Part shown: positions 16,382 through 36,477 of the stretch, one piece after another | Position numbering within the stretch: the stretch's first letter is position 1 | Layout of the letters: each line of letters starts with the position of its first letter | Source: Acutalibacteraceae bacterium | GTDB taxonomy: Bacteria; Bacillota; Clostridia; Oscillospirales; Acutalibacteraceae | Direction: 5' to 3' | Assembly (NCBI GenBank): GCA_045659145.1 | Contig: JAZOWI010000023.1 | Span: forward strand, 3,669 to 67,668 | Length of the DNA stretch: 64,000 bases | Notes under the pieces: generated by a model | Databases searched by the model: none | Seen by the model: the letters and a program-made list of their open reading frames with translations, nothing else | Told to the model about the DNA's origin: nothing | Program-made: the position numbers and the translations under genes

Positions 16382-19300
16382 TTACGGATTGGTGCAGACG
16401 CCGGAGGCGTTGAAATAATAGGTCTGGCCTTGCCACTTCACAGAAGTGTTGGCAACCATATAGCCATTACCATCCATATAGTACCACTCGCCGCCGTACT
16501 TGACCCAATCATTGATGGTCATACGGCCGTTCTCATCCAGATAGCACCAGCCCACAGAATCTTTCTTCCAACTGTTGGTGACACAGTAACCGCTATTGTC
16601 CACATAGCACCAACCCTTGGAATCCTTGACCCACTTGTTGGTAGCCATACGGCCGCTGGCATCCAGATAGACCCAACCCTTAGAATCCTTCTTCCAGGTG
16701 TTGGTGACGCAGTAACCGTCAGCACCCACATAGCACCAGCCCACAGAATCCTTGACCCAGGCATTGGTGGCCATCTTACCGTTGGAGCCCAAATAGCACC
16801 AGCCCACAGAATCCTTCTTCCAGGTGTTGGAAACCATGTAGCCGTTGGCATCCAGGTAGTACCAACCGGTGCCATCATTGACCCAGTTGTTCTTCACCAT
16901 AGAACCGCTGCCATTCAGGTAGCACCAGCCCTTGGAATCCTTCTTCCAGGTGTTGGTGACCGCATAGCCGTCGGCACCCACATAGCACCAGCCAATAGAA
17001 TCCATGACCCACTTGTTGGTAACCATGGCACCGTTGGAGCCCAGGTAGCACCAGCCCTTGGAATCCTTGACCCACTTGCTGGCGACCATGTAGCCATTGG
17101 CATCGATGTAGTACCAAGAACCGTCCTTGATCCACTTCGCCTTGACCTGCTTGCCGTTCTCATAGTAAGTCCACTTGGAACCATCCTTGATCCAGCCATC
17201 TTCGACGGGAGGCTCAATGTAATCGTCCACAACTTCCTTACCGTCCTCGGTCTTGAACAGGCGCATATTGTCGATCAGAGCAGAACCGCCCAGATCGCAG
17301 ATACCAATACCCAGAGTGTCGTATACATCCGTGTTGAGGTTGAACACCAGAGTGAACCACTCATCGCCATAGTCTTCCTTACTGAAAGAAATCTCAATAA
17401 AGTTGATGTTGTGGCGAATCTTGCCATCCATCAGAGCCAGTTTACCCGCACCGCTCTCCAGGATCTTAACATCCACAGAGAAGGTGTAATCGGTATTGGG
17501 CTCCACATCCAACCAGTTGATGTAGTAGTAACCCACAGGGTTCTTGCTGGCGGTGTACTTCAGGGAGTTGCCATACTCATACTCGTTCTTGGCAATGTCA
17601 ATCATGCCCAGACCGAAGCCATTGCCATCCTTCCAGAAGTCCAGAGAACCAGTAGAGAAGGTGGGATCCACGATCAGGTTGTCCTTATCGTCGGCACCGT
17701 TGAACTCAACGCTGTCAAAGTCAACGCTGATGTTGCCGGCCATATTCTCGGAAACAAACTTCTTGCCATCGCCGTTCTTGAACAGAGCGATGTCATCCAC
17801 CCACATCTGAGAGTAGCTACCGGACAGAGCGATGCCAACCTTGGTGCTGGAACCGCTGTTGAACACGATGCTGCGCAGGTGCCACTCGTTATCCCACGCG
17901 GTGGGAACCAACTGACGCTTGTTGGTGCTGAACAAGAACTCGCTGAAGGTGAGATACTTGTTGTTGTCGGGGTTCACAATACCGATGGTCGCATCGTAGC
18001 GGTTATCATCAGAGATGAAAGCACCCTTCAACCAAGCAGAGAAGACGTAATCCGTCTCGGGCTCAACATCCACGTAGATCACGTGCTTCTGCGTATCCTC
18101 AACACCGGAGGTGTTGAAGTACAGACTCTTGGAGCCGGCGGGAGCAGTGGAATCGTCCACGATCTGCACGGTGTCGCACAGGAAATCATCCAGACCCTCA
18201 GCAGACTCGAAGCTACCGTTGGTCAGCAGATTCTTGTCAGCGGTCATGGGACGGTTGTTCACCGTGCCAAAGGACAGCATCGTCATGGGAATCACGGGCT
18301 CCTCAGGCTCAGAGATCTCAGGCTCAGTGCCCTTGACATACAGACCGATGTCATCCACCAGCATGATGCCGGGAGTGGTGCTGTCGGGACCGAATTTGAG
18401 CATCAGCTCTTCGATCTCGCCGGAGTTGAACTCAATACGCTGCTCAGTCCAGTTAGCATTAGCATGACCGAAGGTGTATTCACCGGAGATGATGGTACCG
18501 GTGGACTTATCCAGGTCGCACAGGTTCTTCCAGTCCATAGCCCACAGGCACCAGGGACCATCGCCTTCAACGCGCTTAGACCACCATACCAAAACATACA
18601 CAGTATCCTTCTGGAGTTTCACCTTCTGCATCACGCACTCGGACCACTGAGCGTCATTGGCCTCCAGCACCATGGAGTTGGTGCCGGTGTGAGCGTCGTT
18701 GGTCTCCAGAACACAGGTATCCTTCTTTACATCCCAGCTCTCGGTGCCCTTCTCGAAGCTGCCGTTCTTCACCAGGTTGTCACCATCCTCGTTGGGGATG
18801 TCGGACTTCTTCATAAAGACGACCTCATCCACCGCAAAGCTAGTGACACTAGCCTCCATCTGGAAGTACAGATCGATGACCTCATAGTCACCGGTATTGA
18901 ACTCCAGAACCTGATGTACCCAATCATTGTGGGTCTGATTAAACCAATACTGACCACTGGTCAGCGGAACATTATCATTACCGCTCTTAACATACAGGTT
19001 CCAGGCAGCCGTGCTGTTATCAAGACGCATATTCCAGAAGCTGATCACATAATCAGTGTTCTTCTCCACCTTAAAGCCGGTCTGCTTAGCGCCGCAGCCC
19101 CACTGGGCGGTGTGTTCCAGAATCAGAGCGTACTGGCCCTCTTTGACATACTCAGGATCATTGGTAATGGCAGAGGGAGCGGCAACGCTCCAAGCATCGC
19201 CGTTACCGGACTCAAAGCCGCCGTCCACGATCAAATTCTTGTCGGCAGGATCACCGGGCTCGTCGCCGGCAGCGGTGTCAACAATGACGAAATCGTCAAC

Positions 19301-20734
19301 ATACGCATCCTCGGCAATCTTGTTGCCGCCGCCGCAGAAGTTCACAAAGATGCTCTCAGCGGAAGCCACAAAAGTGTACTCAATCTTAGTCCACTCGCCG
19401 GCCTTGTTCTTGTCGTACCAGCCGCCGCAGCCCTCGATGCTGTTCTGATCACTGGGTTTCAGCTTCACCTGCACATTAACACCGTTGTTGTTAACCTTCA
19501 GCATAAAGGACAACTTATACTCGTTACCAACCGTCAGGCCGGTGATGGTCTGGTCCAGCATACCGCCCCAGCTACCATCACCAATCAGGTTGGCGCCGTA
19601 CTCACCGTTGTAGGAAGCCTCATCGGAGATCACGGTGTTCTGCCAGGCCTCCCAACCGGTGATATCGCCGGTCTCGAAGTCGCCGTTGACAAAACCAAAG
19701 GCAGGCTCCTCGGGCTCTTCGCCGCCAACCTCAACCACCTTGAAGTCATCAATGTAATAGTTAGCATTACAGTTGATAAACATCATGGACAGGAAACCGT
19801 CCTTCGAAGGAGTCACCTCATGAGAATACTCCTTCCAACTATCGCTCAGACGGGGCCAAGTGGTCTCCAGCAAGAGCTCCAGTTTGGAACCGTGATTCGC
19901 ATTACCATAGTTGGTCATGCTGATAGCGATAGCCGAACCACTCGCTGTACCGGGCAGATACTTTGCCTGGTAGGACACGATATAGGTCTTACCAGCCTGT
20001 ACGGGCACCGTGGGAGACTCAGCCGTGTTTTTATAGTCCTCGTAGGCAGTACCCTGCACAACAAAGGCATAATTGCCGTTGGCTGCATCCTCATCCGTGA
20101 TGCCGGTGCCGCCGTCGCCCGACACCTTCCAACCATCCGCATTGCCATCCTCAAAGGTGTCCACAAAGGGACCGGCGGGAACTTCAGGCTCAGATATGTC
20201 AGACTTCTTCATGAAGACGACCTCGTCCACTGCGAAGGATGCGGGTTTAGCCTCTTTCTGGAAGAACAGGTCGATGACCTCATAGTTGCCGGAGTTGAAC
20301 TCCAGAACCTGATGCACCCAATCGGTGTGGGTCTGGTTAAACCACTGCTGACCGCTGGTCAGCGTCATGTTGGTATTGCCGCTCTTGATATACAGGTTCC
20401 AAGCGCCGTCGCCGGAGATGCGCTTATTCCAGAAGCCCACCACATAATCGGTGTTGGGCTCGACCGCAAAGCCGGTCTGCTTAGCGCCGCAACCCCACTC
20501 AGCGGTGTGGTCCAGAATCAGAGCATACTGACCTTCCTTGACATAGTCAGCATTGTCGGTGATGGCAGAGGGAGCCTCAACGCTCCAAGCCTCGCCGTTG
20601 CCGGACTCGAAGCCGCCGTCGACGATCATATTTTTGTCGTCCGCAGAAGCAACCAAAGTGCCCAAAGGCAGAACCGTCAGCATCATCGCCACGGCCGCCA
20701 GGAGGGCTAATACTTTACGAATATTCTTTTTCAT
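16382..20734 (-). CDS. 1450-aa secreted protein: signal peptide, about 7 CBM4/9-like modules (including the conserved tandem pair), C-terminal cell-wall-binding (CW_binding_1-type) repeats
   Basis: Signal peptide MKKNIRKVLALLAAVAMMLTVLPLGTLVASA. Repeated (N/D)G(G/S)FE.G motifs. The C-terminal ~275 aa consist of ~21-aa repeats W(V/K)KDS.GWCY(L/V)...G.M.TN. AGGAGG RBS. Confidence 0.85.
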   Translation of the reverse strand: MKKNIRKVLALLAAVAMMLTVLPLGTLVASADDKNMIVDGGFESGNGEAWSVEAPSAITDNADYVKEGQYALILDHTAEWGCGAKQTGFAVEPNTDYVVGFWNKRISGDGAWNLYIKSGNTNMTLTSGQQWFNQTHTDWVHQVLEFNSGNYEVIDLFFQKEAKPASFAVDEVVFMKKSDISEPEVPAGPFVDTFEDGNADGWKVSGDGGTGITDEDAANGNYAFVVQGTAYEDYKNTAESPTVPVQAGKTYIVSYQAKYLPGTASGSAIAISMTNYGNANHGSKLELLLETTWPRLSDSWKEYSHEVTPSKDGFLSMMFINCNANYYIDDFKVVEVGGEEPEEPAFGFVNGDFETGDITGWEAWQNTVISDEASYNGEYGANLIGDGSWGGMLDQTITGLTVGNEYKLSFMLKVNNNGVNVQVKLKPSDQNSIEGCGGWYDKNKAGEWTKIEYTFVASAESIFVNFCGGGNKIAEDAYVDDFVIVDTAAGDEPGDPADKNLIVDGGFESGNGDAWSVAAPSAITNDPEYVKEGQYALILEHTAQWGCGAKQTGFKVEKNTDYVISFWNMRLDNSTAAWNLYVKSGNDNVPLTSGQYWFNQTHNDWVHQVLEFNTGDYEVIDLYFQMEASVTSFAVDEVVFMKKSDIPNEDGDNLVKNGSFEKGTESWDVKKDTCVLETNDAHTGTNSMVLEANDAQWSECVMQKVKLQKDTVYVLVWWSKRVEGDGPWCLWAMDWKNLCDLDKSTGTIISGEYTFGHANANWTEQRIEFNSGEIEELMLKFGPDSTTPGIMLVDDIGLYVKGTEPEISEPEEPVIPMTMLSFGTVNNRPMTADKNLLTNGSFESAEGLDDFLCDTVQIVDDSTAPAGSKSLYFNTSGVEDTQKHVIYVDVEPETDYVFSAWLKGAFISDDNRYDATIGIVNPDNNKYLTFSEFLFSTNKRQLVPTAWDNEWHLRSIVFNSGSSTKVGIALSGSYSQMWVDDIALFKNGDGKKFVSENMAGNISVDFDSVEFNGADDKDNLIVDPTFSTGSLDFWKDGNGFGLGMIDIAKNEYEYGNSLKYTASKNPVGYYYINWLDVEPNTDYTFSVDVKILESGAGKLALMDGKIRHNINFIEISFSKEDYGDEWFTLVFNLNTDVYDTLGIGICDLGGSALIDNMRLFKTEDGKEVVDDYIEPPVEDGWIKDGSKWTYYENGKQVKAKWIKDGSWYYIDANGYMVASKWVKDSKGWCYLGSNGAMVTNKWVMDSIGWCYVGADGYAVTNTWKKDSKGWCYLNGSGSMVKNNWVNDGTGWYYLDANGYMVSNTWKKDSVGWCYLGSNGKMATNAWVKDSVGWCYVGADGYCVTNTWKKDSKGWVYLDASGRMATNKWVKDSKGWCYVDNSGYCVTNSWKKDSVGWCYLDENGRMTINDWVKYGGEWYYMDGNGYMVANTSVKWQGQTYYFNASGVCTNP

Positions 20735-20749: not shown

Positions 20750-22750
20750 TTATCTCACTTCGTACAGACCGATGTCATCAACGTAGAAGTCAGAATCCTT
20801 GATAACACGGAAGTCAATACCGAGCTTATCAGTCTCACCGGTACGAACGGTAATCACATCCTCGTGCCACTCGCCGTCCTGCTTAGCATTCAGATACTTA
20901 GCCGCAGGCTCAGCATCATAGATGGAGCCGTCACCGGTACCCTTGCCGTTAGCATCCAGAGTACGGATGAAGCAGTAGGCAGAAGGACATACGCCGATGT
21001 TCTTGTACTTGTAGGAGATCTTGTAGTTGGTATTGGGCTTAACGGTGATGCCGGGCTGGTTGAAGCCGAACCACTCGCTGCCGTTGTACCAATAACGGAT
21101 CACATACTCGCCATCGGGAGCATCGTCGATCTTCAAGACCTCACGACGATACTTGGAGTTGTCAGGATTCTCCGCATCCTGCTCACCCCAGTCTTCCCAA
21201 CCGGTCATATCGCCGGTCTCGAAGCTGCCGTTGGTCACCAGGTTCACGGGAGGCCCAAGGATCTCCATCTCGTTGTTAGGCTCAGACTCAGCAACGTTGC
21301 CGTCGGAGTCACGGACGATGATCTTATACATTACGGTGCCGCCATCGGTCCAGTTGGCAATGAACTCATCGTTGTAATTGCCCTTACCGTTGGTAGCATA
21401 TTCCATGGGATCTACGTTGTCCAGAACCTTCTCCCAAGTCTTACCGCTGTCCATGGAACGGAGCAGATCCATCTCAGTAGCCTGACGGGAAGGAATCCAA
21501 GTAACCGCACCGGAACCGGTGTTAGCAAACAAGATCGCCTTATCCAGAATGATCTCCTCGCCACGATGCAGAGCGCGATACTCGTCGATATAATAACGCA
21601 GAGTGAAAGCACCGGCACGGAAATCGCTGGTGGACTTAGCATCGGAAGCCAGCAGGCTATAATTGGTACCATAGGTGTTAGGCTGCCAGCACCACATCAT
21701 CCAACCGGTATAACCGGCAGCGATCAGGTTGTCATGGAACTGGATCATCTTGATGGTCCAGACCTCGTCCTCGACAGCGCCGTCGCCCAGACCCCACTCG
21801 GTCATAATAACAGGGTTGGAGGTCTTCAAAGACTCTACGCTGGGAACATTACAGGTAGAAGAATAGTTGTTAATACCCATGAAATCAAAGCCCTTATCCA
21901 GGTTGCGATAAATGGACATATCCTTCATGTTGGCGCAGTTGGTGCGAGCCACATCCGGCAGCACCTCAGCAACAACGTTGGTAACCGCATTCATGAAGTA
22001 CAGCATATCATCCTGATTAACGCCATACAGAACGCGACCGCCTTCAAAGTTGTTACCAATAGCGGAATCGTTCATCTCGTTCTCCAGCTCAACGCCGGTA
22101 GCAACCATCACAACAACGTCGGGATACTCAGCCAGAACCTCACAAACAGGCTTGGCAAATTTCTCGGCATAGTTATCCGCAACCTCAGGACGGCAGTACG
22201 CCTGAGCCACCATATCCCACAGCAGCTTACCATCCTTGAACAAATCGTTGGCTGCGGAGGTGTGGAAACAGATGGACCACAGAACGGGCATTTCCACTTC
22301 GCGGCAGATGTCCAGAAGCTTACGGATATTCTCCAGATAGTCCTCCTTAACACCCAACACGTCGCCGTTGTCATCATAGATGACACCCTCGCCGAAGGGA
22401 GAACCCTCATAACCCAGGACGTTGAAGCCCAGAGCCTTCAGGTTGTAGATCTCGCGGTAGATATTGGCTGCGCCGTACTGGTCAAAACCAGCCGCCGCAA
22501 AGCTGTTGCCGATAATCTTGACGCCGAGATCGTTACCGGTCAAACCGTGACCGAGGTTCTCGTGTTTGAACCAAGGGTACCAGATACCCTCAATGTAACC
22601 GTCGCGATCGATGATCTCTTCCACAGTGGTCACATCGTCACGCCACGGAAGGGTCGTGCCACCGGAAACCATCATGGTGCCAAAGACGCTCAACAGCATC
22701 GCAACAGCACACAGGACCGGCAACAGAACCTTCATGTTGGTTCTACGCAT
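20750..22750 (-). CDS. Secreted putative glycoside hydrolase, clan GH-A-like TIM barrel of unassigned family (paralogue P1), plus Fn3-like/Asp-box module and 1 CBM-like module
   Basis: Signal peptide. Conserved N-terminal EEIIDRDGYIEGIWYPWFKH. Candidate acid/base in VELENEMND and nucleophile in VIMTEWGLGD (the NE...E pattern of clan GH-A). Asp-box SMDSGKTW. C-terminal NGSFETGDMTGW module. Confidence 0.65.
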   Translation of the reverse strand: MRRTNMKVLLPVLCAVAMLLSVFGTMMVSGGTTLPWRDDVTTVEEIIDRDGYIEGIWYPWFKHENLGHGLTGNDLGVKIIGNSFAAAGFDQYGAANIYREIYNLKALGFNVLGYEGSPFGEGVIYDDNGDVLGVKEDYLENIRKLLDICREVEMPVLWSICFHTSAANDLFKDGKLLWDMVAQAYCRPEVADNYAEKFAKPVCEVLAEYPDVVVMVATGVELENEMNDSAIGNNFEGGRVLYGVNQDDMLYFMNAVTNVVAEVLPDVARTNCANMKDMSIYRNLDKGFDFMGINNYSSTCNVPSVESLKTSNPVIMTEWGLGDGAVEDEVWTIKMIQFHDNLIAAGYTGWMMWCWQPNTYGTNYSLLASDAKSTSDFRAGAFTLRYYIDEYRALHRGEEIILDKAILFANTGSGAVTWIPSRQATEMDLLRSMDSGKTWEKVLDNVDPMEYATNGKGNYNDEFIANWTDGGTVMYKIIVRDSDGNVAESEPNNEMEILGPPVNLVTNGSFETGDMTGWEDWGEQDAENPDNSKYRREVLKIDDAPDGEYVIRYWYNGSEWFGFNQPGITVKPNTNYKISYKYKNIGVCPSAYCFIRTLDANGKGTGDGSIYDAEPAAKYLNAKQDGEWHEDVITVRTGETDKLGIDFRVIKDSDFYVDDIGLYEVR

Positions 22751-22863: not shown

Positions 22864-24651
22864 TTACGCCAACTCGTTCTCGATCTTATCGATGTTGGCA
22901 TCCAGTACGCTGTACCAAGAATCTAGGTTGCTCTTCACCTTGGACTTGGAATCCGACGCCTCGTCGATCAAGGTGTACTGGATAGAAGCAGCGGTATACT
23001 CACCGCCGTAGGTCAGAACACCGATGGAGTTAAAGGACTGAATATCCTGCTCCCACATCCAATCCATAACCTCCCAACATTCATTCATGTTGTACAAGGT
23101 AGGATCGCGGTAGTTCTTGTCATCCAGGTAATAACGCAGATACCAGGCAGCCGCCTGCAACGTATCGCCGGAATTCTTCTTGCCGGTGGGGAAGCCCCAA
23201 ACCATACCCTCGCAGGAGGCTACGGGATCCATGCCGGCGGGAGACGGGAAGGGAACGACACCCCAAGAGCCCTCGGCCATATTCTTGGGAACGTAGTTCT
23301 CGCCCTTAGCCTGCATAAAGAAGGATCCGCCGCCAAACATAGCCGACTTACCGGAGAAGAAGGGAGTCGCAGCAGTGAAGGAAGTATCCACAACCTTGTA
23401 GTTGTAAATAACATCCCAAGCGTAATACCACGCTTCCAGCAGCTTCTCGTTCTTCACATTGTTCTTCAGACCGTTGATGTCGGACAGAACGAAGTCCTGA
23501 CCGGCAGACAGCATCCAGTAATTCTGATAGGTCAGAGACATACCGGTCTCACCCTTGGAGTTATCGGTACACTTCTGTGCGATCTCCAGGCAGGTATCCC
23601 AGTTCCAGTTGCCCTCTTTCCACAGCTGGGAAGGAGTCTTGGTAACGCCCTTTTGGGCCAGGATGTTCTTGTTGTAGAACATCACATAGTAGGTAGACAT
23701 AGCGGAACCAACCAGGTTGATACCGTAATACTCACCCTTGTAGGAGAACTGATCCATCATCTTCTTGGCGTAAACGGTATTGTCGCTGAAATCCCAACCG
23801 GTAGCGCTGATGGGCTGCATCAGCTTACGGGTGATGGGCTGGGGATACCATTCGTTGATGATCGCCGAGATGTTGGGAGAGTTCTGTGCCATAACCATGG
23901 CGGACAGACGGGTCTGATACTTGCCCAGCTCAGCAGTCTCGTAAGTAACGGTGCTGCCGGTCTTCTCCTTGTAGGTGTTGGCCTTGATCACATCGCCGCC
24001 ATCCGGGTACTTGTTCCACCAGATCAGCACCTTGATCTTCTTGTTCTTGGCGCTATCGGGAATCTTAGACCACAGATCATCCTCGGTACCGGCCGCAGGG
24101 GTGGTGTTGGTGGTGGTCTTAGTGGTCGTAGTAGACTTGGTAGAAGTAGTAGTCTTAATGGGGCCGGGACCGGTAGTGGGCTTAGTAGTCGACTTAGTAG
24201 TCGACTTGGTAGTCGACTTAGTGGTCGACTTGGTGGTCTTGGTGGTCTTGTCATTCTTCGCGGTGGACTTGGTGGTCTTGGTGGTCTTGTCGTCCTTCGC
24301 GGTAGACTTTGTGGTCTTGGTGGTCTTGTCGTCCTTCTTAGTGGTGGTGGTGTTATCCGACACATCACCGGTGGTATCGGTGCTCTCGTCGGAAACGTCA
24401 CCACTCTCGTCAGAGACATCCGAAGACTCGTCGGTCATATCGGTGCTCTCGTCGGTGGGATCACCACTCTCGTCGGTGGAATCGGTGCTGTCGTCCGGAA
24501 TCAGCTGAGAATTGTCATCCACGCTGGTGCCGGTCGAAACATCGTCATTTCTGCTGGGATCCGGCTCAGGCTTGTTGCCGCAACCAACCAAGGTCAGCAG
24601 CATCACAAACACCAGCAGCGTCGCCAGCAGAGCAGAAAAACTTTTTTTCAC
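22864..24651 (-). CDS. Extracellular solute-binding lipoprotein (ABC, family 1 / CUT1-type), paralogue 1, with ~170-aa low-complexity tether
   Basis: GTG start with an AGGAGG RBS. Lipobox LTLVGC. D/S/T/E-rich then K/T/S-rich linker. SBP_bac_1-like body (KVLIWW..., NSPNISAIINEWYPQ). Confidence 0.85.
   Translation of the reverse strand: MKKSFSALLATLLVFVMLLTLVGCGNKPEPDPSRNDDVSTGTSVDDNSQLIPDDSTDSTDESGDPTDESTDMTDESSDVSDESGDVSDESTDTTGDVSDNTTTTKKDDKTTKTTKSTAKDDKTTKTTKSTAKNDKTTKTTKSTTKSTTKSTTKSTTKPTTGPGPIKTTTSTKSTTTTKTTTNTTPAAGTEDDLWSKIPDSAKNKKIKVLIWWNKYPDGGDVIKANTYKEKTGSTVTYETAELGKYQTRLSAMVMAQNSPNISAIINEWYPQPITRKLMQPISATGWDFSDNTVYAKKMMDQFSYKGEYYGINLVGSAMSTYYVMFYNKNILAQKGVTKTPSQLWKEGNWNWDTCLEIAQKCTDNSKGETGMSLTYQNYWMLSAGQDFVLSDINGLKNNVKNEKLLEAWYYAWDVIYNYKVVDTSFTAATPFFSGKSAMFGGGSFFMQAKGENYVPKNMAEGSWGVVPFPSPAGMDPVASCEGMVWGFPTGKKNSGDTLQAAAWYLRYYLDDKNYRDPTLYNMNECWEVMDWMWEQDIQSFNSIGVLTYGGEYTAASIQYTLIDEASDSKSKVKSNLDSWYSVLDANIDKIENELA
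24181..24228 (-). repeat. 12-nt coding tandem repeat x4 (TKST units) in the SBP1 linker
   Basis: CTT(A/G)GT(A/G)GTCGA repeated at 24181, 24193, 24205 and 24217, encoding (TKST)4 on the minus strand. Confidence 0.9.
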
Positions 24652-24681
24652 TGGATTGTCCTCCTTACAAAATATCTTAAA

Positions 24682-24719
24682 CAGGGCCCCGACCTGTTCG
24701 CTCCGTTATCGGAGCCCTG
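24682..24719 (-). terminator. Inter-cistronic hairpin between SBP2 and SBP1
   Basis: CAGGGCCCCGA (24682-24692) / TCGGAGCCCTG (24709-24719) with one mismatch. On the minus strand it is followed by GTTTAAGATATTTTGTAAGGAGG. Confidence 0.45.
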
Positions 24720-24756
24720 CTTAATACAAACAAAGTATCCAGAACGGACAAAGGGA

Positions 24757-26558: not shown

Positions 26559-26591
26559 GGACTCCGTTCGGTTACTCCATTTCCGGAGTCC
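26559..26591 (-). terminator. Inter-cistronic hairpin between SBP3 and SBP2
   Basis: GGACTCCG (26559-26566) / CGGAGTCC (26584-26591). On the minus strand it is followed by GTTTAAGATATTTTACAAGGAGG. Confidence 0.45.
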
Positions 26592-26626
26592 CATTTAATC
26601 CAAATGAATGGGGAATGCGTCAGAAA

Positions 26627-28901: not shown

Positions 28902-30611
28902 TCAATTCCAGTCCGAACGACCATCGCTGTCAACAAACACCTCTTGATAACAACTTTTGATAATATCACCGTAAACACAGATGTCTTTTCCTTTATGTCG
29001 GAAAACATAATAGGGCCGCACGTAGATATTTGACTCCGTATGGGCAAACGGAATGTTTATAATGCGTACCGCATATTCTGCTTTTCCTTTGGCCACCGAA
29101 ATCCCCTTTTCGGCAACAGCATTTACCATTCTGCTACCGTCAACTCGGTCGATCACCATATGCTCGGGAGAGGCCTTATCTGCACTGTTACAGATTAATG
29201 CACCCATAGAAACAAGCGGATACATATTACCGTCACTCAGCGCATCTACCGTGGCGTTGATATAATCCAGCGTGTAGGACTCAGCGATGGACAAGCCCTC
29301 CACAGGCAATTCCATACGGAACGCCAGCTTGTATTGACGCTGAGTTTCGGGCAAATGACTCTGTTCTGCAGAATCCGAAATGCTGACGCCGGTATGGATA
29401 GGTTTCAAAGTAGGGATGATTTCCACTTCGGGTTCGGTGGAAATACCGTCTCCGGACTTAAACAAGCGGAAATCGTCCAACAGCACCTCGCCGCCCTTGT
29501 CCTGAATGACAAAGCCGACCTGCTTGAACACCTTGGAATCAAACTTAATACTGGTTATTTGCCAATCCGTTTTCGAATTGAGAGATATGGTCCGAAACGC
29601 CTTTGGCAGTTCAATGTTGTCATCCACCAATTTTATAGAGCCGTTACCGGTTTTGGTTACTTTGTACTTGAAGGTGAGGGTATAGGTGGTATTAGGTTCA
29701 ACCTTCAACCATTTAAAATAATGCAGACCAATGGGATTCACCGAGCTGTATTTCATTACACGCCCCTGATCGCCACCCACCTTGTCGAAGGACATAAAAC
29801 CATTGTTCCAACCGCTGCTGGTCTTGGTCCAAAACTCGGTTGACCGGTCGCCGATCATATTGGCATCGGGAATCAGGTTGTTCTCATCAGCGCAATACTT
29901 ATTGTCGCCGGAATTTGCGGCCGTAAGCGAAGTGGTTAACCGCTCACCCTTGTAGGTCTTTGATTTAGTAGAGAGAAAACTATTGGTGCGATGCAGTGCC
30001 ATATCATCGAAATACATCTCGGAAGAATAACCGTAGATGCCGATGGTAACAGAGGAAGACGAAGCCTTAAACTGGACACTGCGCAGATGCCATTTGTTAT
30101 CGGTGGCGGTGGAGCGGATCTGCTCCGTATCCCACGACACATGACCGAGATAGCTGTCTGTCATTTTTGCGAAAGCATCCTTGCCCGCATCGGGGTCCAT
30201 CACACCAATAGAGGCCTTGGCTTTGTTTGCAGCGCTCAAATACGGTGTCTTTACCCAAACCGAGAAAATGTAAGTCTGGTTTTTGGATAGACCCGATACC
30301 GTGAACTTACGCCAAGAGGGAGTAGCGGACGTATTTTTGTAGCAAAGCACTTTGCTCCCCTCAGGGGCGGTAGGATCACTCGTGACATAAAGGAGGCCAT
30401 CCTTTAAAAAAGTGTCGGTATTCCATTGACCATCACTCGTGGATTCAAAGCCACCGTTTTTAATGGAGTTGTTGCTTGAAGAACTGGGGCGGTTGGTTTC
30501 CACGCCAAAGTCGCTCAGAGAAAGAGCGCCAGCCTCCACCGAAAAGGTCATCAACAACACAAGCGCCGCACAAAAGGAAAGGGCTTTTTTCACATAGTTC
30601 ATTCGTTTCAT
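28902..30611 (-). CDS. Secreted protein: signal peptide, conserved tandem CBM-like pair, unassigned C-terminal domain
   Basis: Signal peptide MKRMNYVKKALSFCAALVLLMTFSVEAGA. Modules NGGFESTSDGQWNTD...MYFDDMALH and YCADENNLIPD...VLLDDFRLFK. C-terminal AEKGISVAKGKAEYAVRIINIP...IYVRPYYVF...VYGDII. Confidence 0.8.
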   Translation of the reverse strand: MKRMNYVKKALSFCAALVLLMTFSVEAGALSLSDFGVETNRPSSSSNNSIKNGGFESTSDGQWNTDTFLKDGLLYVTSDPTAPEGSKVLCYKNTSATPSWRKFTVSGLSKNQTYIFSVWVKTPYLSAANKAKASIGVMDPDAGKDAFAKMTDSYLGHVSWDTEQIRSTATDNKWHLRSVQFKASSSSVTIGIYGYSSEMYFDDMALHRTNSFLSTKSKTYKGERLTTSLTAANSGDNKYCADENNLIPDANMIGDRSTEFWTKTSSGWNNGFMSFDKVGGDQGRVMKYSSVNPIGLHYFKWLKVEPNTTYTLTFKYKVTKTGNGSIKLVDDNIELPKAFRTISLNSKTDWQITSIKFDSKVFKQVGFVIQDKGGEVLLDDFRLFKSGDGISTEPEVEIIPTLKPIHTGVSISDSAEQSHLPETQRQYKLAFRMELPVEGLSIAESYTLDYINATVDALSDGNMYPLVSMGALICNSADKASPEHMVIDRVDGSRMVNAVAEKGISVAKGKAEYAVRIINIPFAHTESNIYVRPYYVFRHKGKDICVYGDIIKSCYQEVFVDSDGRSDWN

Positions 30612-30626: not shown

Positions 30627-32558
30627 TTAGCTTTCTACCTGATACAGACAGAAGTCGTCAACGGCAAACTGACCGGGATTGGCATCGTCGTTTGCCTGAA
30701 AGCGGAAATCGATGGTGGTATAATTTCCGGAATTAAAGGTAGCCTCGCAATAGACCCAATCCGTGTTCGTATGGCTAAAGAAAATACAACCGGCATTAAT
30801 ATTCGTATTGCCGTTCTTGGTAAACAGCGCATATCGACCGGAACCGGAAATGCGCTTTACCCAGAAAGAAACGGTATAACTGGTATTCTTCTTTACAGAG
30901 ATGCTCCTGTTGGCACACTCCGTCCAGACACCGCCGCTGGCTTTGAGCCGCAGAGACTTGGATCCGTTGTGAGCGTAAGCAGACGTAACCTCACCGTAGT
31001 TGGATTGAATGTTCCAGCCGGTGTTGCCACTCTCAAAGCCGCCATTGGTGGCCATATTGGTGGGCGGTGTCATATGGTTGCTGTACGAGGTGTGTCCATT
31101 CACCGTCACACGATACTGCACCGACGATCCCCCCACGCCGGTGTCCTGATAAGAATACCGATATCCACCCGTAGAGGCGTCTGCGACTGCTCCGCTGTTC
31201 TGGGTCACGGTAGTCCAAGCGCCGCCGTCTACGGAGCGCTCCAATTTATAAGTGGTGACACCTTTAGGCTGAATCCAATACACAGGACTGACGCCATCGT
31301 AATACAACATCGACGGCTTGCCGGTCACATAGGTGCCCGGCCGTTTAGAAGCACGATATTCCTCGATGTAATAGTATTGTTCATAAGTAGCCGAACGGAA
31401 ATCGTAGACCGTAGTGGCACCGTTCTTCAACAGATGATGACCGCCGCCATCGCGACCCGTAGGTTCCCAGGCCCACTGAATCCAACCGGCGTAATTATTG
31501 GACATAAACTTCTGTCGGAAGGTCTTCCATTTGCTGGCGAGGGAGGTGTCGTTGTAGTTGCTGCCATGATCCACGCCCCACTCGGTGGCCAGCATCGGAG
31601 CGGTAGCATAATATTGAGTCAGTTCGATGACGTTGGGGGTGTCCGAATACTGGTTGCGGCCTACCATATCGAAATTGCAGTCCGCATACATAGCGAAATT
31701 AGAGGTGTTGGTGGCAATGGTCACCGGGGTTTCAGGCATCATCTCTTTGATGGTATCGGTTACCGATTTAACAAAATGCACCGCATCCTCTTGGGTAACG
31801 CCGTAGGTTTCGCGGTCGCCCGTGGACTGATTACCCAACTGAGAATCGTTAATCTCGTTCTCGATCTCAACAGTGGAGCACATCATCGCCACCACGTCGG
31901 GGTACTCATTCAGCACCTCGCACACGGGCTTAACGAACTTCTCACAGTAGTTGGCAGTAATTTCGGGATTAGAATACATCTGGCACACAAAATACCAGAT
32001 ATCCAAATTACTGTATAGTACCGCCGCCGAGGTGTGGAAACACATAGCCCACAGCACCGGCATCTCCAACTCGCGGCACACATCCAGCAGGCGACGCATA
32101 TTGGTCAGATAAACGGGATCAACGCCCAACACGTCGCCGGTGTCCGGATCGTGAAGGATGCCCTCTCCCCAAGGAGAGCCTTCCAAACCAAGGATGTTGT
32201 ACCCCAAGGCTTTCAGATTGAATATCTCCCGCTTGATGTTGGAGATGCCATATTCGTCGATACCGATCTTATTGAAATCCTGCCAATAATCGGTTTGGCT
32301 TCCGTCTGTGTTGTAGAAACCGTCCAGCCGCTCGTTGTCAGGATTGGCCGCCAGACCGCTACCCAAATAGGTGTGGGTAAACCAAGGGTACCAGATACCC
32401 TCCAGATACGCATCCCGCTCGATGATGTCAAAGGCGGTAATATGCTCGTAATTCCGAGATGCTTCGCTGCCTGTGGCCACCATTGCGCCACAGCTGCTGC
32501 ACAGCAAGGCGACGGCGCACAGAATCGGTAAAAGCGCCTTTCTTCCGATGTTGCGCAT
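30627..32558 (-). CDS. Secreted putative glycoside hydrolase, clan GH-A-like (paralogue P2), plus Fn3-like/Asp-box module and 1 CBM-like module
   Basis: DIIERDAYLEGIWYPWFTH, VEIENEINDS, LATEWGVDHG, degenerate Asp-box SVDGGAWT, and a C-terminal NGGFESGNTGW module. Confidence 0.65.
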   Translation of the reverse strand: MRNIGRKALLPILCAVALLCSSCGAMVATGSEASRNYEHITAFDIIERDAYLEGIWYPWFTHTYLGSGLAANPDNERLDGFYNTDGSQTDYWQDFNKIGIDEYGISNIKREIFNLKALGYNILGLEGSPWGEGILHDPDTGDVLGVDPVYLTNMRRLLDVCRELEMPVLWAMCFHTSAAVLYSNLDIWYFVCQMYSNPEITANYCEKFVKPVCEVLNEYPDVVAMMCSTVEIENEINDSQLGNQSTGDRETYGVTQEDAVHFVKSVTDTIKEMMPETPVTIATNTSNFAMYADCNFDMVGRNQYSDTPNVIELTQYYATAPMLATEWGVDHGSNYNDTSLASKWKTFRQKFMSNNYAGWIQWAWEPTGRDGGGHHLLKNGATTVYDFRSATYEQYYYIEEYRASKRPGTYVTGKPSMLYYDGVSPVYWIQPKGVTTYKLERSVDGGAWTTVTQNSGAVADASTGGYRYSYQDTGVGGSSVQYRVTVNGHTSYSNHMTPPTNMATNGGFESGNTGWNIQSNYGEVTSAYAHNGSKSLRLKASGGVWTECANRSISVKKNTSYTVSFWVKRISGSGRYALFTKNGNTNINAGCIFFSHTNTDWVYCEATFNSGNYTTIDFRFQANDDANPGQFAVDDFCLYQVES

Positions 32559-32738: not shown

Positions 32739-34925
32739 TCAGCTCCAATCCAACTGACCGTCGTTGACATTGGGCGCTTCCTTATAGCAGCGAGATACAA
32801 TGTCACCATAGACAACGACCTCTTCACCCTCATACTCGAACACATAGTAAGGACGAGCATAAATTGTGGTCTGAATATTTGGATCAGGGATGTTAACGAT
32901 GCGCACCGCATATTCCGCTATGCCGTTCGCAACGGAAATACCCTTTTCCGCCACGATATTAATAGTGCTGCCTTTCGGTGTTGCATTGCCGATCACCATA
33001 TGATCCGTGGAGGCACCATTGGGGTTGTTGCACATAATGGCACCCATCGCCACGAGCTTGTATTTTACACCGGTACCCAGAGCATCTACCATAGCGGTGC
33101 TGTCATAGCCAATGAAGCGATGATCCTCGGAGATGGTCAAGCCGGTTGCCGGCAATTCTACACGGAACGCCAAGGCATTACCCACATCCGGCGCCTGATT
33201 CTCAGGATCGGAGGTACTGGTGCCGGTGTTGGCAGGCTTCAAGGCAGCGAACACCTCTTCGACAGGCTCGGTGGAGGTACCATTGGCATTACCATTCTCA
33301 TCATAGGTCTTGAACAAACGAATGTCGTCAATCATCGCTGTGCCACCCGCATCCAAAACCACAAAACCGATCTGGTTGTGAACGCCGGAGTTGAAGGTGA
33401 CCGCATATTCTTCCCACTTATCCATTCGACTTGTGAAGGGAATCCTGCCGAACTCCTCAGGTAACTCAATGTCGTTATCCACCAACTTGATCATACCGTT
33501 ACCCGTGGTAAGAACCTTGTAGTCGAAAGACATCGTGTAATCGGTGTTGGGCTCCACGGGGATCCACTTGAAGAAGTTATAATTCACCTTGGCCCCGGCA
33601 GTGTATTTCATTACACGGCCGTGGTCGTCACCGGCATCCACAATGGACATAAAGCCGTTGTTCCAGCCGCCGGAATTGGTGCTCCAAAAGTTCTTGGAAA
33701 CGCCGCTGTTCATATTGCAATCGGGAATCAGGTTATCCTCGGCCTTACAATACTTATTGGTCACCGAGGTGCTGCCGGAAATATTCTCCGAACGACGAGC
33801 ACCCACGTACTCCATACCGTCGGTCAGCTTATGTACCGACAGGTCGTCGATCCACATCTGGGACTTCTTACCGTATACCGCCACGGTCACCGTTTCCGTA
33901 TTGGAGGTGCGGAAGGTCATGGCGCGCAGATGCCAACGGTTATCCATAGCCGTGGGACGCAGGGCCTTTTTGGGACCGGACTGCTTAAACTTATATGCTG
34001 CAAGCGAAGAATAGATAAACTGGTTCGTATCCGGGTCAATGATACCGAGGCTGGTCAGACCCGTATTGTTGCCACTCAAGTAGGGAGCCTTCACCCACGC
34101 GGACAGTACGTACTCGGTATTGGCCTCCACGTTGATGGTGAAGGTGTGCCAGCTCTCCATAGTGGAGGCATTCTGGTAATACAGGCAACTGTTGCCGGAA
34201 TAAGCACCCTCGGAAACCACCGACAGGTTGTTCTTGATGAAGGTGTTGGTGTTCCACTGGGCACCGGAGGTGGACTCGAAGCCCCCCTGGGTCACCTTGT
34301 TGACCGAATCACTCTTGGGACGGTTCATTTCAGCACCGAAACCGGTCATCGTAGGAGTGGGGTCCGAGTGAGTCGACTCATCGCCCACCGTAGTGGCAGT
34401 CAACGAAACACCATCCAGATAATGAGTCCGGTTGCCCGAGCTGGGGGCGTAAAAACGAATGCAAATGTACGTGTTACTGCCCACGCTGATACCTGATTTA
34501 GTGGTCTCCTTAAATGTCGTACCATTATTTACGTTCGTCTTCTGCACCAATGTTGTACCGAAAGTCGTGTCGTTGGTGCCGGCTACCACCTCATACTGAT
34601 AAGTTCCTGAACCATTTAGAGAGATTGCATAACGACACCAAAAAGATAAGGTGTACACCGCATTCTTGTTGACCGGAATAACTTGAGAAGCAACTACTTT
34701 GCCGTAGGTGGCACTATTGATTGGCATTTTCAAGGAATAAGAATCATATTTCTTGTAATCTGTAGAAGCCTCGGCACCGGAGATAGTCCAAGCAGCGATA
34801 CCTTCCTCAAAGCCACCATTCGCCACAGTACCCACAGCCGCCGCCGAAACCGCGAAGGAAGGGATCAGCGTGCAGAGCATCGCCACGGACAGGAGGACTG
34901 CCCATACTTTATTCATCTTTTTCAT
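32739..34925 (-). CDS. Secreted protein: signal peptide, extra N-terminal CBM-like module, conserved tandem CBM-like pair, unassigned C-terminal domain
   Basis: Signal peptide MKKMNKVWAVLLSVAMLCTLIPSFAVSAAA. NGGFEEGIAAW, QGGFESTSGAQWNTN...MWIDDLSVHK, YCKAEDNLIPD...AMIDDIRLFK. C-terminal AEKGISVANGIAEYAVRIVNIP...IYARPYYVF...VYGDIV. Confidence 0.8.
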   Translation of the reverse strand: MKKMNKVWAVLLSVAMLCTLIPSFAVSAAAVGTVANGGFEEGIAAWTISGAEASTDYKKYDSYSLKMPINSATYGKVVASQVIPVNKNAVYTLSFWCRYAISLNGSGTYQYEVVAGTNDTTFGTTLVQKTNVNNGTTFKETTKSGISVGSNTYICIRFYAPSSGNRTHYLDGVSLTATTVGDESTHSDPTPTMTGFGAEMNRPKSDSVNKVTQGGFESTSGAQWNTNTFIKNNLSVVSEGAYSGNSCLYYQNASTMESWHTFTINVEANTEYVLSAWVKAPYLSGNNTGLTSLGIIDPDTNQFIYSSLAAYKFKQSGPKKALRPTAMDNRWHLRAMTFRTSNTETVTVAVYGKKSQMWIDDLSVHKLTDGMEYVGARRSENISGSTSVTNKYCKAEDNLIPDCNMNSGVSKNFWSTNSGGWNNGFMSIVDAGDDHGRVMKYTAGAKVNYNFFKWIPVEPNTDYTMSFDYKVLTTGNGMIKLVDNDIELPEEFGRIPFTSRMDKWEEYAVTFNSGVHNQIGFVVLDAGGTAMIDDIRLFKTYDENGNANGTSTEPVEEVFAALKPANTGTSTSDPENQAPDVGNALAFRVELPATGLTISEDHRFIGYDSTAMVDALGTGVKYKLVAMGAIMCNNPNGASTDHMVIGNATPKGSTINIVAEKGISVANGIAEYAVRIVNIPDPNIQTTIYARPYYVFEYEGEEVVVYGDIVSRCYKEAPNVNDGQLDWS

Positions 34926-34944
34926 ACGTCAGATCCTCCCTTCA

Positions 34945-36477
34945 TTAGTATTTCCACACGTTGGAATAAGACGTCTTGCCGTTAACAGTGACACGATACT
35001 GCACCGTGCCGGAGGTCACAAAATTGGGATCTTGATAGCTGTAACGATAACTGCCGGTGGTGGTGTCCACAGTAGCACCGGAGGTCGTCACCGTAGTCCA
35101 AGTATTGCCACCGTCCACCGAACGCTCCACCTTGTAGGTGCTTACGTTTTTGGGCTGAATCCAATACAGCAGACCATTGGCATTTTTACCATCGTGATAG
35201 AACATAGAGGGATTACCGGTGGTATGATAGGCGGATTTCTTGTCCGCACGAATCTCCTCAATGTGATAGTACTGCTCGTAGCAAGCCTGACGGAAATCGT
35301 ACACTGTCTGAGCATTCTGCTTGGTGAACTGGTTGCCGGAGGGAGTCTGCGTTCTTCTCAGCGTAGGCTGCCAGCACCACTGGAACCAACCGGTATAATT
35401 CTGAGTCATAAGATTGATGCGCCAGTTTTTGAAAGCGGTAATAGCCTCACTTTCGCTGAGCGCAACTCCATCACCCAGGCCCCACTCGGTGGCCAGTACG
35501 GGAGCGGTAGCATAGTAATTGGAGAAATTGTACACATTAGCGGAAGAAGAATACTGGTTACGACCCACCATATCAAAGTTACAACCGGCGTACATAGCGT
35601 AGTTGTTGGTGTTGGTAGCAATGGTTACGTAGGTGTTGGGCATCTTCTCCTTCACCGTCTGGGTCAGACGGGTAACGAAGTGCACACAGTCATCCTGCGT
35701 AATGCCATAAGCCTCGCGGTCGCCGTGATTCATATGATTACCCAGTTCGGAGTCGTTGGTCTCGTTCTCCAACTCAACGGTGGAACAAACCATCGCCACC
35801 ACGTCAGGGTACTCATTGAGCACATTGCACACGGGCTTGACGAACTTCTCGCAATAGTTCTCCACAATCTCGGGATTGCAGTAGAACTGGGTGGCGAAAT
35901 ACCACGCGTCCATACCGGTGTACTCAGGCATCGCCGATGCATGGAAGCATATCGTCCACATTACGGGCATATCCACCTCGCGGCAGATATCCAAAAAGCG
36001 GCGAATATTATTGAGATACTCAGGGCGCAGACCAATCACGTCACCGTTGAGCTCGTTGCGCAAGCAACCCTCACCCCAGCAAGAGCCCTCGAAGCCCAGC
36101 ATATTGTAGCCGAGAGCCTTCAGGTTATAGATCTCCTGCTTGATCTTATCCGCGCCGTATTCGTCAATACCAACCTTGTTGAAATCCTGATAGTAATCCG
36201 TGCCACCCTCAGGATGGTCCAGTCTCTCCAGATCGGGATTCTGAGCCAAGCCACTGCCGAGATAATCGTGAGTGAACCAAGGGTACCATACGCCCTCCAA
36301 ATAAGCATCCCGCTCCAGAATCTCCGGCACAGTGACACGACCATCGTTATTCGCGTCATACTTCTTGGCGCTAACGTCCTCGGTGCTACCGGTGAAGGAC
36401 AGCACGCCCAGCATGCTGACCGAAAGGGCCACCACGCAGAGCAAGGGCAACAGGATCTTATTGCCGATTTTACGCAT
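34945..36477 (-). CDS. Secreted putative glycoside hydrolase, clan GH-A-like (paralogue P3), plus Fn3-like/Asp-box module
   Basis: Start trimmed to MRKIGNKILLPLLCVVALS (ATG at 36477, GGAGAGGAAG RBS). EILERDAYLEGVWYPWFTH, VELENETNDS, LATEWGLGDG, Asp-box SVDGGNTW. Confidence 0.65.
   Translation of the reverse strand: MRKIGNKILLPLLCVVALSVSMLGVLSFTGSTEDVSAKKYDANNDGRVTVPEILERDAYLEGVWYPWFTHDYLGSGLAQNPDLERLDHPEGGTDYYQDFNKVGIDEYGADKIKQEIYNLKALGYNMLGFEGSCWGEGCLRNELNGDVIGLRPEYLNNIRRFLDICREVDMPVMWTICFHASAMPEYTGMDAWYFATQFYCNPEIVENYCEKFVKPVCNVLNEYPDVVAMVCSTVELENETNDSELGNHMNHGDREAYGITQDDCVHFVTRLTQTVKEKMPNTYVTIATNTNNYAMYAGCNFDMVGRNQYSSSANVYNFSNYYATAPVLATEWGLGDGVALSESEAITAFKNWRINLMTQNYTGWFQWCWQPTLRRTQTPSGNQFTKQNAQTVYDFRQACYEQYYHIEEIRADKKSAYHTTGNPSMFYHDGKNANGLLYWIQPKNVSTYKVERSVDGGNTWTTVTTSGATVDTTTGSYRYSYQDPNFVTSGTVQYRVTVNGKTSYSNVWKY

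Follow-up and report, generated by a model that had tools for sequence, protein, structure and literature searches.

The locus examined here raises the question of what four paralogous secreted proteins, P1 to P4, act on, and why each is accompanied by the same pair of domains resembling carbohydrate-binding modules (CBMs). The four genes lie in a window of 64,000 nucleotides (nt) from an Acutalibacteraceae bacterium (contig JAZOWI010000023.1). Together with the genes of their partner proteins, they belong to a long, co-directional array on the minus strand, at the coordinates given by an earlier reading of the letters (hereafter, the original prediction). We find that their catalytic module is a far-diverged relative of the GH5_10/GH5_7 β-mannanase branch of glycoside hydrolase (GH) family 5, a closer placement than a mere 'clan GH-A-like' label. 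The four proteins, with lengths in amino acids (aa), are:

20750-22750, minus strand: P1, 666 aa; signal peptide, catalytic (β/α)8 module at approximately aa 35-430, Fn3-like module with an Asp-box, C-terminal CBM_4_9
30627-32558, minus strand: P2, 643 aa; signal peptide, catalytic module, Fn3-like module, CBM_4_9
34945-36477, minus strand: P3, 510 aa; signal peptide, catalytic module and an Fn3-like module only
55660-59268, minus strand: P4, the fused form, 1202 aa; catalytic module, Fn3-like module, tandem modules mod1+mod2 (56638-57654), choline/cell-wall-binding repeats

Each protein carries an N-terminal module of approximately 400 aa behind a Sec signal peptide. In end-to-end alignments of approximately 430 columns, P2, P3 and P4 were 44, 43 and 46% identical to P1, respectively, and a local hidden Markov model (HMM) of the catalytic module found exactly four copies in the window. 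Both results agree with the four paralogous secreted modules originally proposed. The signature motifs quoted at that time are likewise all present, with ERDxYxEGxWYPWF, VE(L/I)ENExND and TE(W/Y) common to P1-P4. The start of P3 at 36477 is a sensible ATG, with a ribosome-binding site and a signal peptide, within an open frame that extends to 36621. The Fn3-like module that had been placed after each catalytic module is supported by matches of the family profile to titin and 'Fn3-like protein' chains at profile positions ∼399-482; P1 and P3 contain an exact copy of its Asp-box, SxDxGxTW, whereas P2 and P4 have approximate versions. P1 and P2 have a C-terminal CBM_4_9 of their own. None of P1-P3 has an anchoring domain; this is supplied by the partner.

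According to Pfam and NCBIfam scans, the catalytic part of P1-P4 matches no model, consistent with the original statement that it lacks an existing-family assignment. An exhaustive HMMER profile scan of 1.84 billion representatives (50% identity) recovered only 131 relatives of the catalytic module, and we therefore consider the family to be rare. A word-indexed search of 5.8 billion clusters found 242 relatives. The few that were named by their source, from metagenome-assembled genomes (MAGs) of Clostridia, Ruminococcaceae and Oscillospiraceae, were each called 'hypothetical protein' or, in one case, 'carbohydrate binding domain-containing protein'. A genome scan yielded 38 related loci (numbered with the prefix L; family members carry the prefix P), all from MAGs of uncultured Acutalibacteraceae, Oscillospiraceae or Clostridia; where the records name a source, it is goat caecum or sheep rectum. 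The window's own genome lies outside these 38 loci, the closest of which is 91% identical, and the contig index holds no entry for the exact P1 protein. For three family members, P0150, P0123 and P0136, the contigs were too short to show gene context.

To place the catalytic module, we compared both its predicted structure and its sequence with known enzymes. The AlphaFold2 (AF2) model of P1, covering residues 33-428, is a (β/α)8 barrel of alternating strands and helices (predicted local distance difference test, pLDDT, 87.3; predicted template-modelling score, pTM, 0.90). In a Foldseek search of the PDB, the best matches of this model were the GH5_10 animal β-mannanases 2c0h, 3vup, 4ooz and 5y6t (E 1e-12 to 2e-11; template-modelling (TM) score 0.54-0.62), followed by GH1 enzymes, GH5_18 Man-β-1,4-GlcNAc mannosidases and GH5_7 mannanases. 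More than 1000 PDB matches had E≤1e-3, and the top 50 were all GH5 or GH1. The barrel and these matches bear out the proposal of a clan GH-A-type retaining-glycosidase module. The Foldseek comparison, which had been suggested as a check, gives GH5_10 mannanases as the nearest structures without placing the module inside that subfamily.

The sequence searches led to the same enzymes by a longer route. PF00150 (Cellulase, GH5) gave no match at E≤0.01 in P1-P4 or in ten divergent family members. A profile of the four window sequences retrieved only chance matches from the PDB (unc-13 and RuBisCO, E>0.06), and a broadened profile was therefore needed. The resulting 67-sequence family profile matched 2c0h with E=2e-20 across the whole domain, as well as 3vup (3e-12), 5y6t (1e-9) and 4oou (8e-9). 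Ten proteins with weak scores in the exhaustive search were scanned against Pfam, and seven of them matched Cellulase/GH5 (search E 3e-8 to 4e-4, plus P0228 at 6e-10). The three of these GH5-positive proteins that were run against the PDB, P0228, P0246 and P0237, were closest to GH5_10 mannanases, down to E=6e-21. Finally, an hhalign comparison of 204 family sequences with eight bacterial GH5-positive (GH5_10-like) proteins gave a probability of 100% and E=1.3e-55 over 317 columns at 19% identity. As judged from these sequence comparisons, homology of the catalytic module to bona fide GH5 enzymes is demonstrated, and the earlier view that it could not be matched to a GH family gives way to the concordant profile, HMM-HMM and Foldseek results. 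Because Foldseek and the independent sequence searches converge on the same relatives, we place the module in the GH5_10/GH5_7 branch. The modelled fold and the predicted catalytic Glu pair are those of clan GH-A.

GH5 enzymes share eight hallmark residues: Arg, His, Asn, Glu, His, Tyr, Glu and Trp. We examined these positions in an alignment of 204 family members, or of 207 sequences when the GH5-like bridging proteins are included. The predicted catalytic codons in the window are:

22088-22090, minus strand: P1 acid/base, E221
21797-21799, minus strand: P1 nucleophile, E318
31866-31868, minus strand: P2 acid/base, E231
31581-31583, minus strand: P2 nucleophile, E326
35773-35775, minus strand: P3 acid/base, E235
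35485-35487, minus strand: P3 nucleophile, E331
58606-58608, minus strand: P4 acid/base, E221
58315-58317, minus strand: P4 nucleophile, E318

In P1 numbering, used hereafter, the catalytic Glu pair on which the original prediction depended is present in the alignment: E221 occurs in 201/207 sequences (198/204 without the bridging proteins) and E318, in its TEW or GEF context, in 200/204. Both residues align with the catalytic Glu positions of 2c0h. In the P1 model, E221 immediately follows strand β4 (model 181-188) and E318 lies within a later strand (model 282-288). The predicted acid/base is therewith the first Glu of VE(L/I)ENE and the predicted nucleophile the Glu at the end of β7. The original prediction had instead taken the module for a clan GH-A enzyme of the canonical type, with the Glu of the 'ENE' pair, N224-E225, as acid/base, and these two residues are indeed invariant in the four window paralogues and their close relatives. 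Across the wider family, however, N224 is kept in only 143/207 sequences and E225 in 148/207. In the divergent clades with YAEPEAD, TVENATN and TVEGGES, E221 is the sole residue common to all. Moreover, the hmmsearch alignment with 2c0h and hhalign both lay VE(L/I)ENE on the NEPEGE of GH5_10, with its first Glu at the catalytic position, the Glu of the GH5 'NEP'. Residues 222-225 of the model form a short helix past β4. We therefore rejected N224-E225 as the catalytic 'NE' on conservation, divergent-clade motifs and hhalign; that assignment was off by four residues, and the version of the enzyme built on it is highly improbable. Equally hard to credit is the proposal that the modules do not hydrolyse glycans but serve as catalytically dead scaffolds that bind carbohydrate (pseudo-enzymes) or as dedicated transglycosylases. 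Such a role would suit the loss of three GH5 hallmarks described below and the obligate coupling to binding modules, and GH5 retaining enzymes are able to transglycosylate (PMC3526467). Yet both catalytic Glu, the β6 Tyr and the β8 Trp are kept in 86-99% of the 204 members across very deep divergence, and the genes sit in a catabolic locus with solute-binding proteins (SBPs), permeases, a phosphorylase and esterases. We rejected the pseudo-enzyme version because both Glu are conserved.

The surroundings of the Glu pair are less conventional. Five of the eight GH5 hallmarks are retained across the 204 members, including the β6 Tyr (Y296, 202/204), the β3 His (H163, 194/204) and the β8 Trp (176/204), and three are replaced. 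The β2 Arg is kept in 18/204 and is mostly Gly instead; the β6 His of H-x-Y is kept in 2/204, with mostly Asn, Gln or Asp in its place. The third is the Asn that precedes the acid/base in clan GH-A and hydrogen-bonds the 2-OH of the substrate. At this position, all 204 members have V, S, D, I, A, C or G and none has Asn; the canonical residue was found only in two bridging GH5-annotated proteins. These alignments suggest that the two-Glu retaining machinery is intact and that the −1 subsite has been rebuilt, with the universal loss of the Asn apparently the most distinctive feature of the catalytic family. It is mainly for this loss that the term 'mannanase' should not be transferred uncritically.

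A comparison with GH5_10 itself defines the distance. The mannanases of this subfamily (Mytilus edulis MeMan5A, 2c0h; Aplysia, 3vup; Cryptopygus, 4oou/4ooz; Eisenia, 5y6t) and their bacterial relatives share with the window family the (β/α)8 barrel, secretion, an E-x-E-x-E after β4 (NEPEGE there, VELENE here), a similar nucleophile context (IGEF there, MTEW or GEF here), the β6 Tyr and the β8 Trp. By contrast, the window family is 12-19% identical to them, is invisible to PF00150 and has the acid/base Asn, β2 Arg and β6 His replaced throughout. It also always carries the Fn3-like module and the tandem CBM-like pair, and is restricted to uncultured Oscillospirales of herbivore guts. The acid/base and nucleophile are ∼96 residues apart here and ∼131 in 2c0h, its catalytic residues reportedly having been identified as E177 and E308 by Larsson and co-workers in 2006. 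Because the family is invisible to the Pfam GH5 model, has three of eight hallmarks replaced and shows such low identity, we do not file it as a member of GH5_10, and on the identity and the lost hallmark residues we argue for a sister lineage of that subfamily. It is plausible that this lineage constitutes a new glycosidase family or an aberrant GH5 subfamily, and no new kind of system. GH5_10 is an endo-β-1,4-mannanase subfamily with metazoan and bacterial members (Aspeborg et al., PMC3526467).

P1, P2 and P3 are each followed by a gene for a partner protein that contains the tandem modules mod1+mod2. The partners and their parts are:

16382-20734, minus strand: partner 1, 1450 aa; signal peptide, several CBM_4_9, mod1+mod2, choline/cell-wall-binding repeats
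17240-18247, minus strand: mod1+mod2 of partner 1 (aa 830-1165)
28902-30611, minus strand: partner 2, 569 aa; signal peptide, mod1+mod2, C-terminal domain without Pfam match
29445-30485, minus strand: mod1+mod2 of partner 2 (aa 43-389)
28905-29444, minus strand: C-terminal domain of partner 2 (aa 390-569)
32739-34925, minus strand: partner 3, 728 aa; signal peptide, one CBM_4_9, mod1+mod2, C-terminal domain without Pfam match
33297-34316, minus strand: mod1+mod2 of partner 3 (aa 204-543)
32742-33296, minus strand: C-terminal domain of partner 3

The gap between the GH stop and the partner start is 15 nt for P1, 15 nt for P2 and 19 nt for P3, and at each of the three junctions a TAAGGAGG-type ribosome-binding site (TAAGGAGGGG, TAAGGGGGAGGGG and TAATGAAGGGAGG) abuts the stop codon. 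The proposed translational coupling, with 15-19 nt gaps and strong ribosome-binding sites (here of the GGAGG type), accordingly describes P1-P3 but not P4, which is fused to its tandem modules instead. Mod1 and mod2 form one colinear unit of ∼335 aa, whose copies in the three partners and inside P4 share 33-45% identity, with a conserved 'FG...NRP' lead-in ahead of mod1. Of the two, mod1 passes the Pfam CBM_4_9 cut-off (28.5 versus 25.9 bits in partner 2), whereas mod2 has no Pfam match above threshold and only sub-threshold matches to MAM and DUF642. The AF2 model of partner 2 is all-β (pLDDT 88). The best Foldseek match of its mod1+mod2 was the tandem CBM22-1/CBM22-2 of Xyn10C from Paenibacillus barcinonensis (4xup, E=1e-10), also a profile match, followed by CBM4-2 and other jelly-roll CBMs; a porphyran-binding CBM was among the matches. 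The Xyn10C pair consists of two consecutive β-jelly-roll modules, as mod1+mod2 probably does; they differ in sequence (14% identity) and have a low global TM score, and the relative orientation of the modules is not comparable.

The carriers end as originally described, in cell-wall repeats or in a novel domain. Partner 1 and P4 have choline/cell-wall-binding repeats (PF01473, PF19085 and PF19127; E 1e-9 to 1e-24, above cut-offs), and partners 2 and 3 share a C-terminal domain of ∼180 aa, 49% identical, for which Pfam gave nothing even at E≤1. A related observation concerns the wider distribution of this β-rich domain (∼170-185 aa). It ends partner 2, partner 3 and a secreted 1293-aa protein (8262-12143, minus strand), where it occupies 8262-8720 (local HMM E=5e-29), and the P3-type partners of many related loci carry it as well. 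Because it takes the place of the choline/cell-wall-binding repeats of the paralogues, it may be an alternative surface anchor. The 1293-aa protein comprises three CBM_4_9, an EEP domain, a CE2_N plus GDSL esterase and this C-terminal domain. An extracellular EEP-CE2 esterase fusion is unusual and hints at a phosphodiester-containing decoration.

To determine how constant the pairing is, we took a census of 62 full-length catalytic modules from the 38 loci and the window. Thirty-seven are fused to mod1+mod2 in proteins of 900-1300 aa, 22 are split and three are cut by a contig end. All 59 evaluable copies thus have the tandem modules either in the same protein or in the next gene, in full agreement with the constant partner of the original prediction. 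Even P0179 of L042, a relative of ∼23% identity, is followed by an overlapping gene with a mod2-like domain. Divergence of the GH modules tracks that of their cognate tandem units (Mantel r=0.83; 0/999 permutations reached the observed value), and both parts have the same nearest neighbour in 40 of 58 units; the GH and the tandem unit therefore duplicate as a whole. The deepest clade is all fused, the P2/P3 clade all split and the P1 clade mostly split, on which grounds fusion looks ancestral and fission derived. The proposed functional unit comprises the catalytic module, the Fn3-like module and a fixed tandem pair of CBM4/9/22-like β-sandwiches, encoded as one polypeptide or as two genes. 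Catalytic modules with obligate accessory β-sandwich modules are known from GH9+CBM3c and GH5_4+CBM46. These share with the present unit the invariant pairing of barrel and CBM and the co-divergence of the parts; the accessory part here differs in consisting of two modules and in often being a separate, independently secreted polypeptide.

The remaining genes of the locus provide the context in which these units would act. The main features are:

22864-28417, minus strand: three tandem lipoprotein SBPs of 595, 589 and 596 aa, between partner 2 and P1
36731-43726, minus strand: companion block of metallophosphoesterase, histidine phosphatase, GH130_2, two ATP-binding cassette (ABC) permeases and DUF5696 lipoprotein
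38465-39451, minus strand: predicted GH130_2 phosphorylase (Pfam GH130, E=1.7e-83)
41420-43726, minus strand: DUF5696 lipoprotein, 768 aa
15339-16259, plus strand: AraC-family regulator gene, convergent with that of partner 1 and found at this place also in L010, L039 and L040

Read from 53707 down to 16382, the array encodes a LacZ-type GH2, a 1013-aa SBP, two permeases, an NHL/Yip1 protein and the DUF5696 lipoprotein; two permeases, GH130, histidine phosphatase, metallophosphoesterase and P3 with partner 3; and then P2 with partner 2, the three SBPs and P1 with partner 1. Beyond the AraC gene lie intracellular SGNH esterases (GDSL-like and DUF4886) and the secreted CBM-EEP-CE2 protein. The original inventory of three SBPs, GH2, GH130 and esterases is correct, but the locus has two permease pairs rather than one orphan pair, and the 1013-aa protein is a fourth SBP. 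No signal peptide is present on the GH2, the GH130 or the small esterases; DUF5696 and the SBPs are lipoproteins. The order of the companion block is the same in L022, L035 and L039, and partly so in the divergent L042, which keeps DUF5696, two permeases, SBP and GH. The longer order of DUF5696, permeases, GH130, phosphatases, GH and partner, then SBP, GH, partner and AraC, recurs in other species (L022, L033, L035, L039 and L040), and in many related loci the gene ahead of the P1-type GH encodes an orthologous SBP.

In PDB comparisons, the companion GH130 matched TM1225 (5e-156), RaMP2, a β-1,4-mannooligosaccharide phosphorylase (9e-132), and UhgbMP (4e-123), with far weaker scores for GH130_1 and the β-1,2 enzymes. 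It is, by sequence, a GH130_2 enzyme of the β-1,4-mannoside phosphorylase type. The three SBPs are near-identical over their first ∼70 residues (signal, lipobox and an acidic D/S/T/E-rich linker). The first copy scores under the Pfam SBP threshold; for the middle copy, the PDB search gave a single, weak match (E=4e-4), to 4r9f ('MBP1'), which is presumably a manno-oligosaccharide binder. The DUF4886 esterase was dropped as independent evidence for mannan, as its sole PDB match is an uncharacterised entry. DUF5696 is co-conserved with the GH family, even beside the ∼23%-identical member in L042. A 28-sequence DUF5696 profile matched the GH129 α-N-acetylgalactosaminidase 5wzn (E=4e-8 over ∼130 residues); DUF5696 is thus probably an uncharacterised GH129/GH101-like extracellular glycosidase. 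A literature search found no mention of it.

Several further features accompany these genes. The second permease pair (43698-50767 region, minus strand) is flanked on one side by a 718-aa protein with an NHL/β-propeller, TPR and a Yip1 membrane domain, and on the other by the 1013-aa SBP, which has a weak Golvesin_C-like N-terminal region. Phosphatase-type genes occur at 36731-38297 (minus strand), 54133-55607 (plus strand) and 61244-62308 (minus strand), and comprise two histidine phosphatases, two metallophosphoesterases and one Cof-type HAD protein. One histidine phosphatase gene and one metallophosphoesterase gene form a pair that keeps its synteny with GH130 in other species. A 301-aa Metallophos open reading frame (ORF) overlaps its upstream gene by 68 nt; because orthologues are ∼273 aa long, its true start is probably further downstream.

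Related loci differ in their surroundings. In some lineages, the family appears to sit on cellulosome-like complexes rather than on cell-wall-binding repeats, because the distant members P0217 and P0229 carry type I dockerins with Listeria-Bacteroides repeats and because cohesin scaffoldins and dockerin-transglutaminase proteins adjoin GH arrays (L014 1284-5696, L018 3646-5646 and L027 3746-5071). In several related MAGs, pyruvate-formate-lyase (PFL)-like glycyl radical enzymes lie directly upstream of GH and partner units (L007 938-5965, L012 772-5939, L016 26-2236 and L027 6481-7968). Pfam scans identified two glycyl radical enzymes and a radical-SAM activase among three ORFs of L007 and a PFL-like protein in L027; those of L012 and L016 are taken to be PFL-like from matching ORF sizes (737 aa). 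These enzymes may link the glycan to deoxy-sugar or diol fermentation, or may be a coincidence. At the low-coordinate end of the window (708-6380, minus strand) is an unrelated cluster of aromatic amino-acid fermentation type, with a phenylacetate-CoA-ligase-like enzyme, an indolepyruvate/2-oxoacid:ferredoxin oxidoreductase and an AMP-binding ligase.

Overall, we consider it fairly probable that P1-P4 are secreted retaining endo-β-glycanases of GH5_10/GH5_7 descent, which act with the tandem-pair unit in the surface depolymerisation of a β-mannan-type polymer and the import of its products. The analysis shows the fold, the homology, the conservation of the catalytic residues, the obligate association and the synteny; the endo action, the complex of GH and partner, and the substrate are what we infer. 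The anchor, whether cell-wall-binding repeats or the Pfam-less C-terminal domain, would hold enzyme and polysaccharide at the cell surface, where P1-P4 would depolymerise a decorated β-mannan-type polymer. The lipoprotein SBPs would capture the released oligosaccharides for import through the ABC permeases. Intracellular SGNH esterases would then de-esterify them, GH2 would trim them and GH130_2 would phosphorolyse the trimmed mannosides, with AraC the probable regulator of the locus. We consider a decorated and possibly acetylated hemicellulose of the β-mannan type to be the most likely substrate class, and the dockerins on some family members and the cohesin/dockerin neighbours support a plant cell-wall origin. 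The original picture of a surface-tethered 'enzyme plus lectin' system, with its hint of acetylated mannan, fits GH130_2, the CE2/SGNH esterases and the nearest homologues.

Several points weigh against this reading. In structure-based alignments, identity to any GH5 structure is only 12-16%, and GH5_10 also includes proteins with xylanase or cellulase activity (PMC5576741). With three of eight hallmarks replaced, including the O2-contacting Asn, specificity at the −1 subsite may differ from mannose. The locus lacks the usual accessories of mannan breakdown (a GH36/27 α-galactosidase, GH1/GH3 enzymes and an epimerase or isomerase), and instead contains the LacZ-type GH2, the GH129-like DUF5696 and several phosphatases. 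A GH38 α-mannosidase lies directly upstream of a deep-branching fused member (L037 2607-5696). The proposed complex of GH and partner is deduced from gene fusion and fission only. As the partner bears the anchor, P1-P3 have none, and the fused order is catalytic-Fn3-mod1-mod2-anchor, the split proteins would come together on the cell surface. Finally, a literature search found no paper describing the catalytic-module family and nothing relevant on Acutalibacteraceae and mannan, on 4R9F or on MnBP1.

Some of the same evidence favours a serious rival, in which the fold and mechanism are unchanged and the substrate is other than plant mannan: a C2-modified or other sugar, for example in an N-acetylhexosamine (HexNAc)-bearing mannoside glycan, such as the N-glycan core, in another eukaryotic or microbial glycoconjugate, or in a β-galactose-bearing polymer. 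GH130_2 would then act on products of the Man-β-1,4-GlcNAc type. The rebuilt −1 subsite would suit such a substrate, and UhgbMP, to which the companion GH130 is also strongly similar, acts on the N-glycan core. In the same direction point the GH5_18 Man-β-1,4-GlcNAc mannosidases among the Foldseek matches, the distant likeness of DUF5696 to α-GalNAc-ases, the GH38 gene of L037, and LacZ-type GH2 proteins both in the window and adjoining P0207, a member of ∼20% identity (L043 4838-7657), which bear on substrate identity. The presence of more than ten copies per genome suggests heterogeneous substrates. However, no GH18/85, GH20, GH29/95, GH33 or GH92 was found in the window or the scanned neighbours; the CE2/SGNH esterases, the CBM4/9/22-like chain binders and the dockerin-bearing relatives point to a plant cell-wall polysaccharide; the nearest homologues in both sequence and structure are mannanases; and the one PDB match of the SBP, for what it is worth, is to 4r9f. 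We regard this alternative as possible, though rather doubtful. A bolder formulation, which we think unlikely, would combine a new CAZy-level GH family or aberrant GH5 subfamily with a −1 subsite for a C2-substituted sugar (for example 2-O-acetyl-mannose or a HexNAc) and a tandem unit that completes the cleft, making P1-P3 heteromeric cell-wall-anchored glycanases.

If the substrate is a β-mannan-type polymer, as we favour, the locus would, by analogy, work in the manner of known Gram-positive loci for mannan utilisation, which deploy a multimodular endo-glycanase at the cell surface. The comparison systems are those of Roseburia intestinalis and Faecalibacterium, reportedly described by La Rosa and co-workers in 2019 and Lindstad and co-workers in 2021. 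Common to them and, as predicted, to the present locus are a surface-attached multimodular endo-glycanase, SBP-dependent ABC import, intracellular acetyl esterases (CE2 or other SGNH) and a GH130_2 phosphorylase. By contrast, the endo-enzyme here is not GH26, GH5_8 or GH113, and is present four-fold in the window and more than ten-fold in some genomes. No GH36, GH113, GH3 or epimerase was seen here, and the LacZ-type GH2, DUF5696, the NHL/Yip1 protein and the phosphatases are extra.

These results expose a rare clade that lies outside every Pfam and NCBIfam model and has undergone massive expansion in the uncultured Acutalibacteraceae and Oscillospiraceae that live in ruminant hindguts. A major set of enzymes in these fibre degraders therefore escapes annotation by standard domain models. 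With the Asn of clan GH-A and the Arg and His of GH5 systematically lost, the family provides a natural test of how −1 specificity is re-engineered on a GH5 scaffold, and the fusion and fission with a fixed CBM-like pair is a clean Rosetta-stone case for a Gram-positive surface enzyme-lectin complex. For specialists in carbohydrate-active enzymes, the appeal lies in a family that is invisible to annotation, has a rebuilt active site and undergoes fusion and fission with an obligate CBM pair, rather than in anything categorically new. Should its substrate prove unusual, the lineage would deserve family or subfamily status of its own and could be a source of new activities for the processing of mannans or other glycans.

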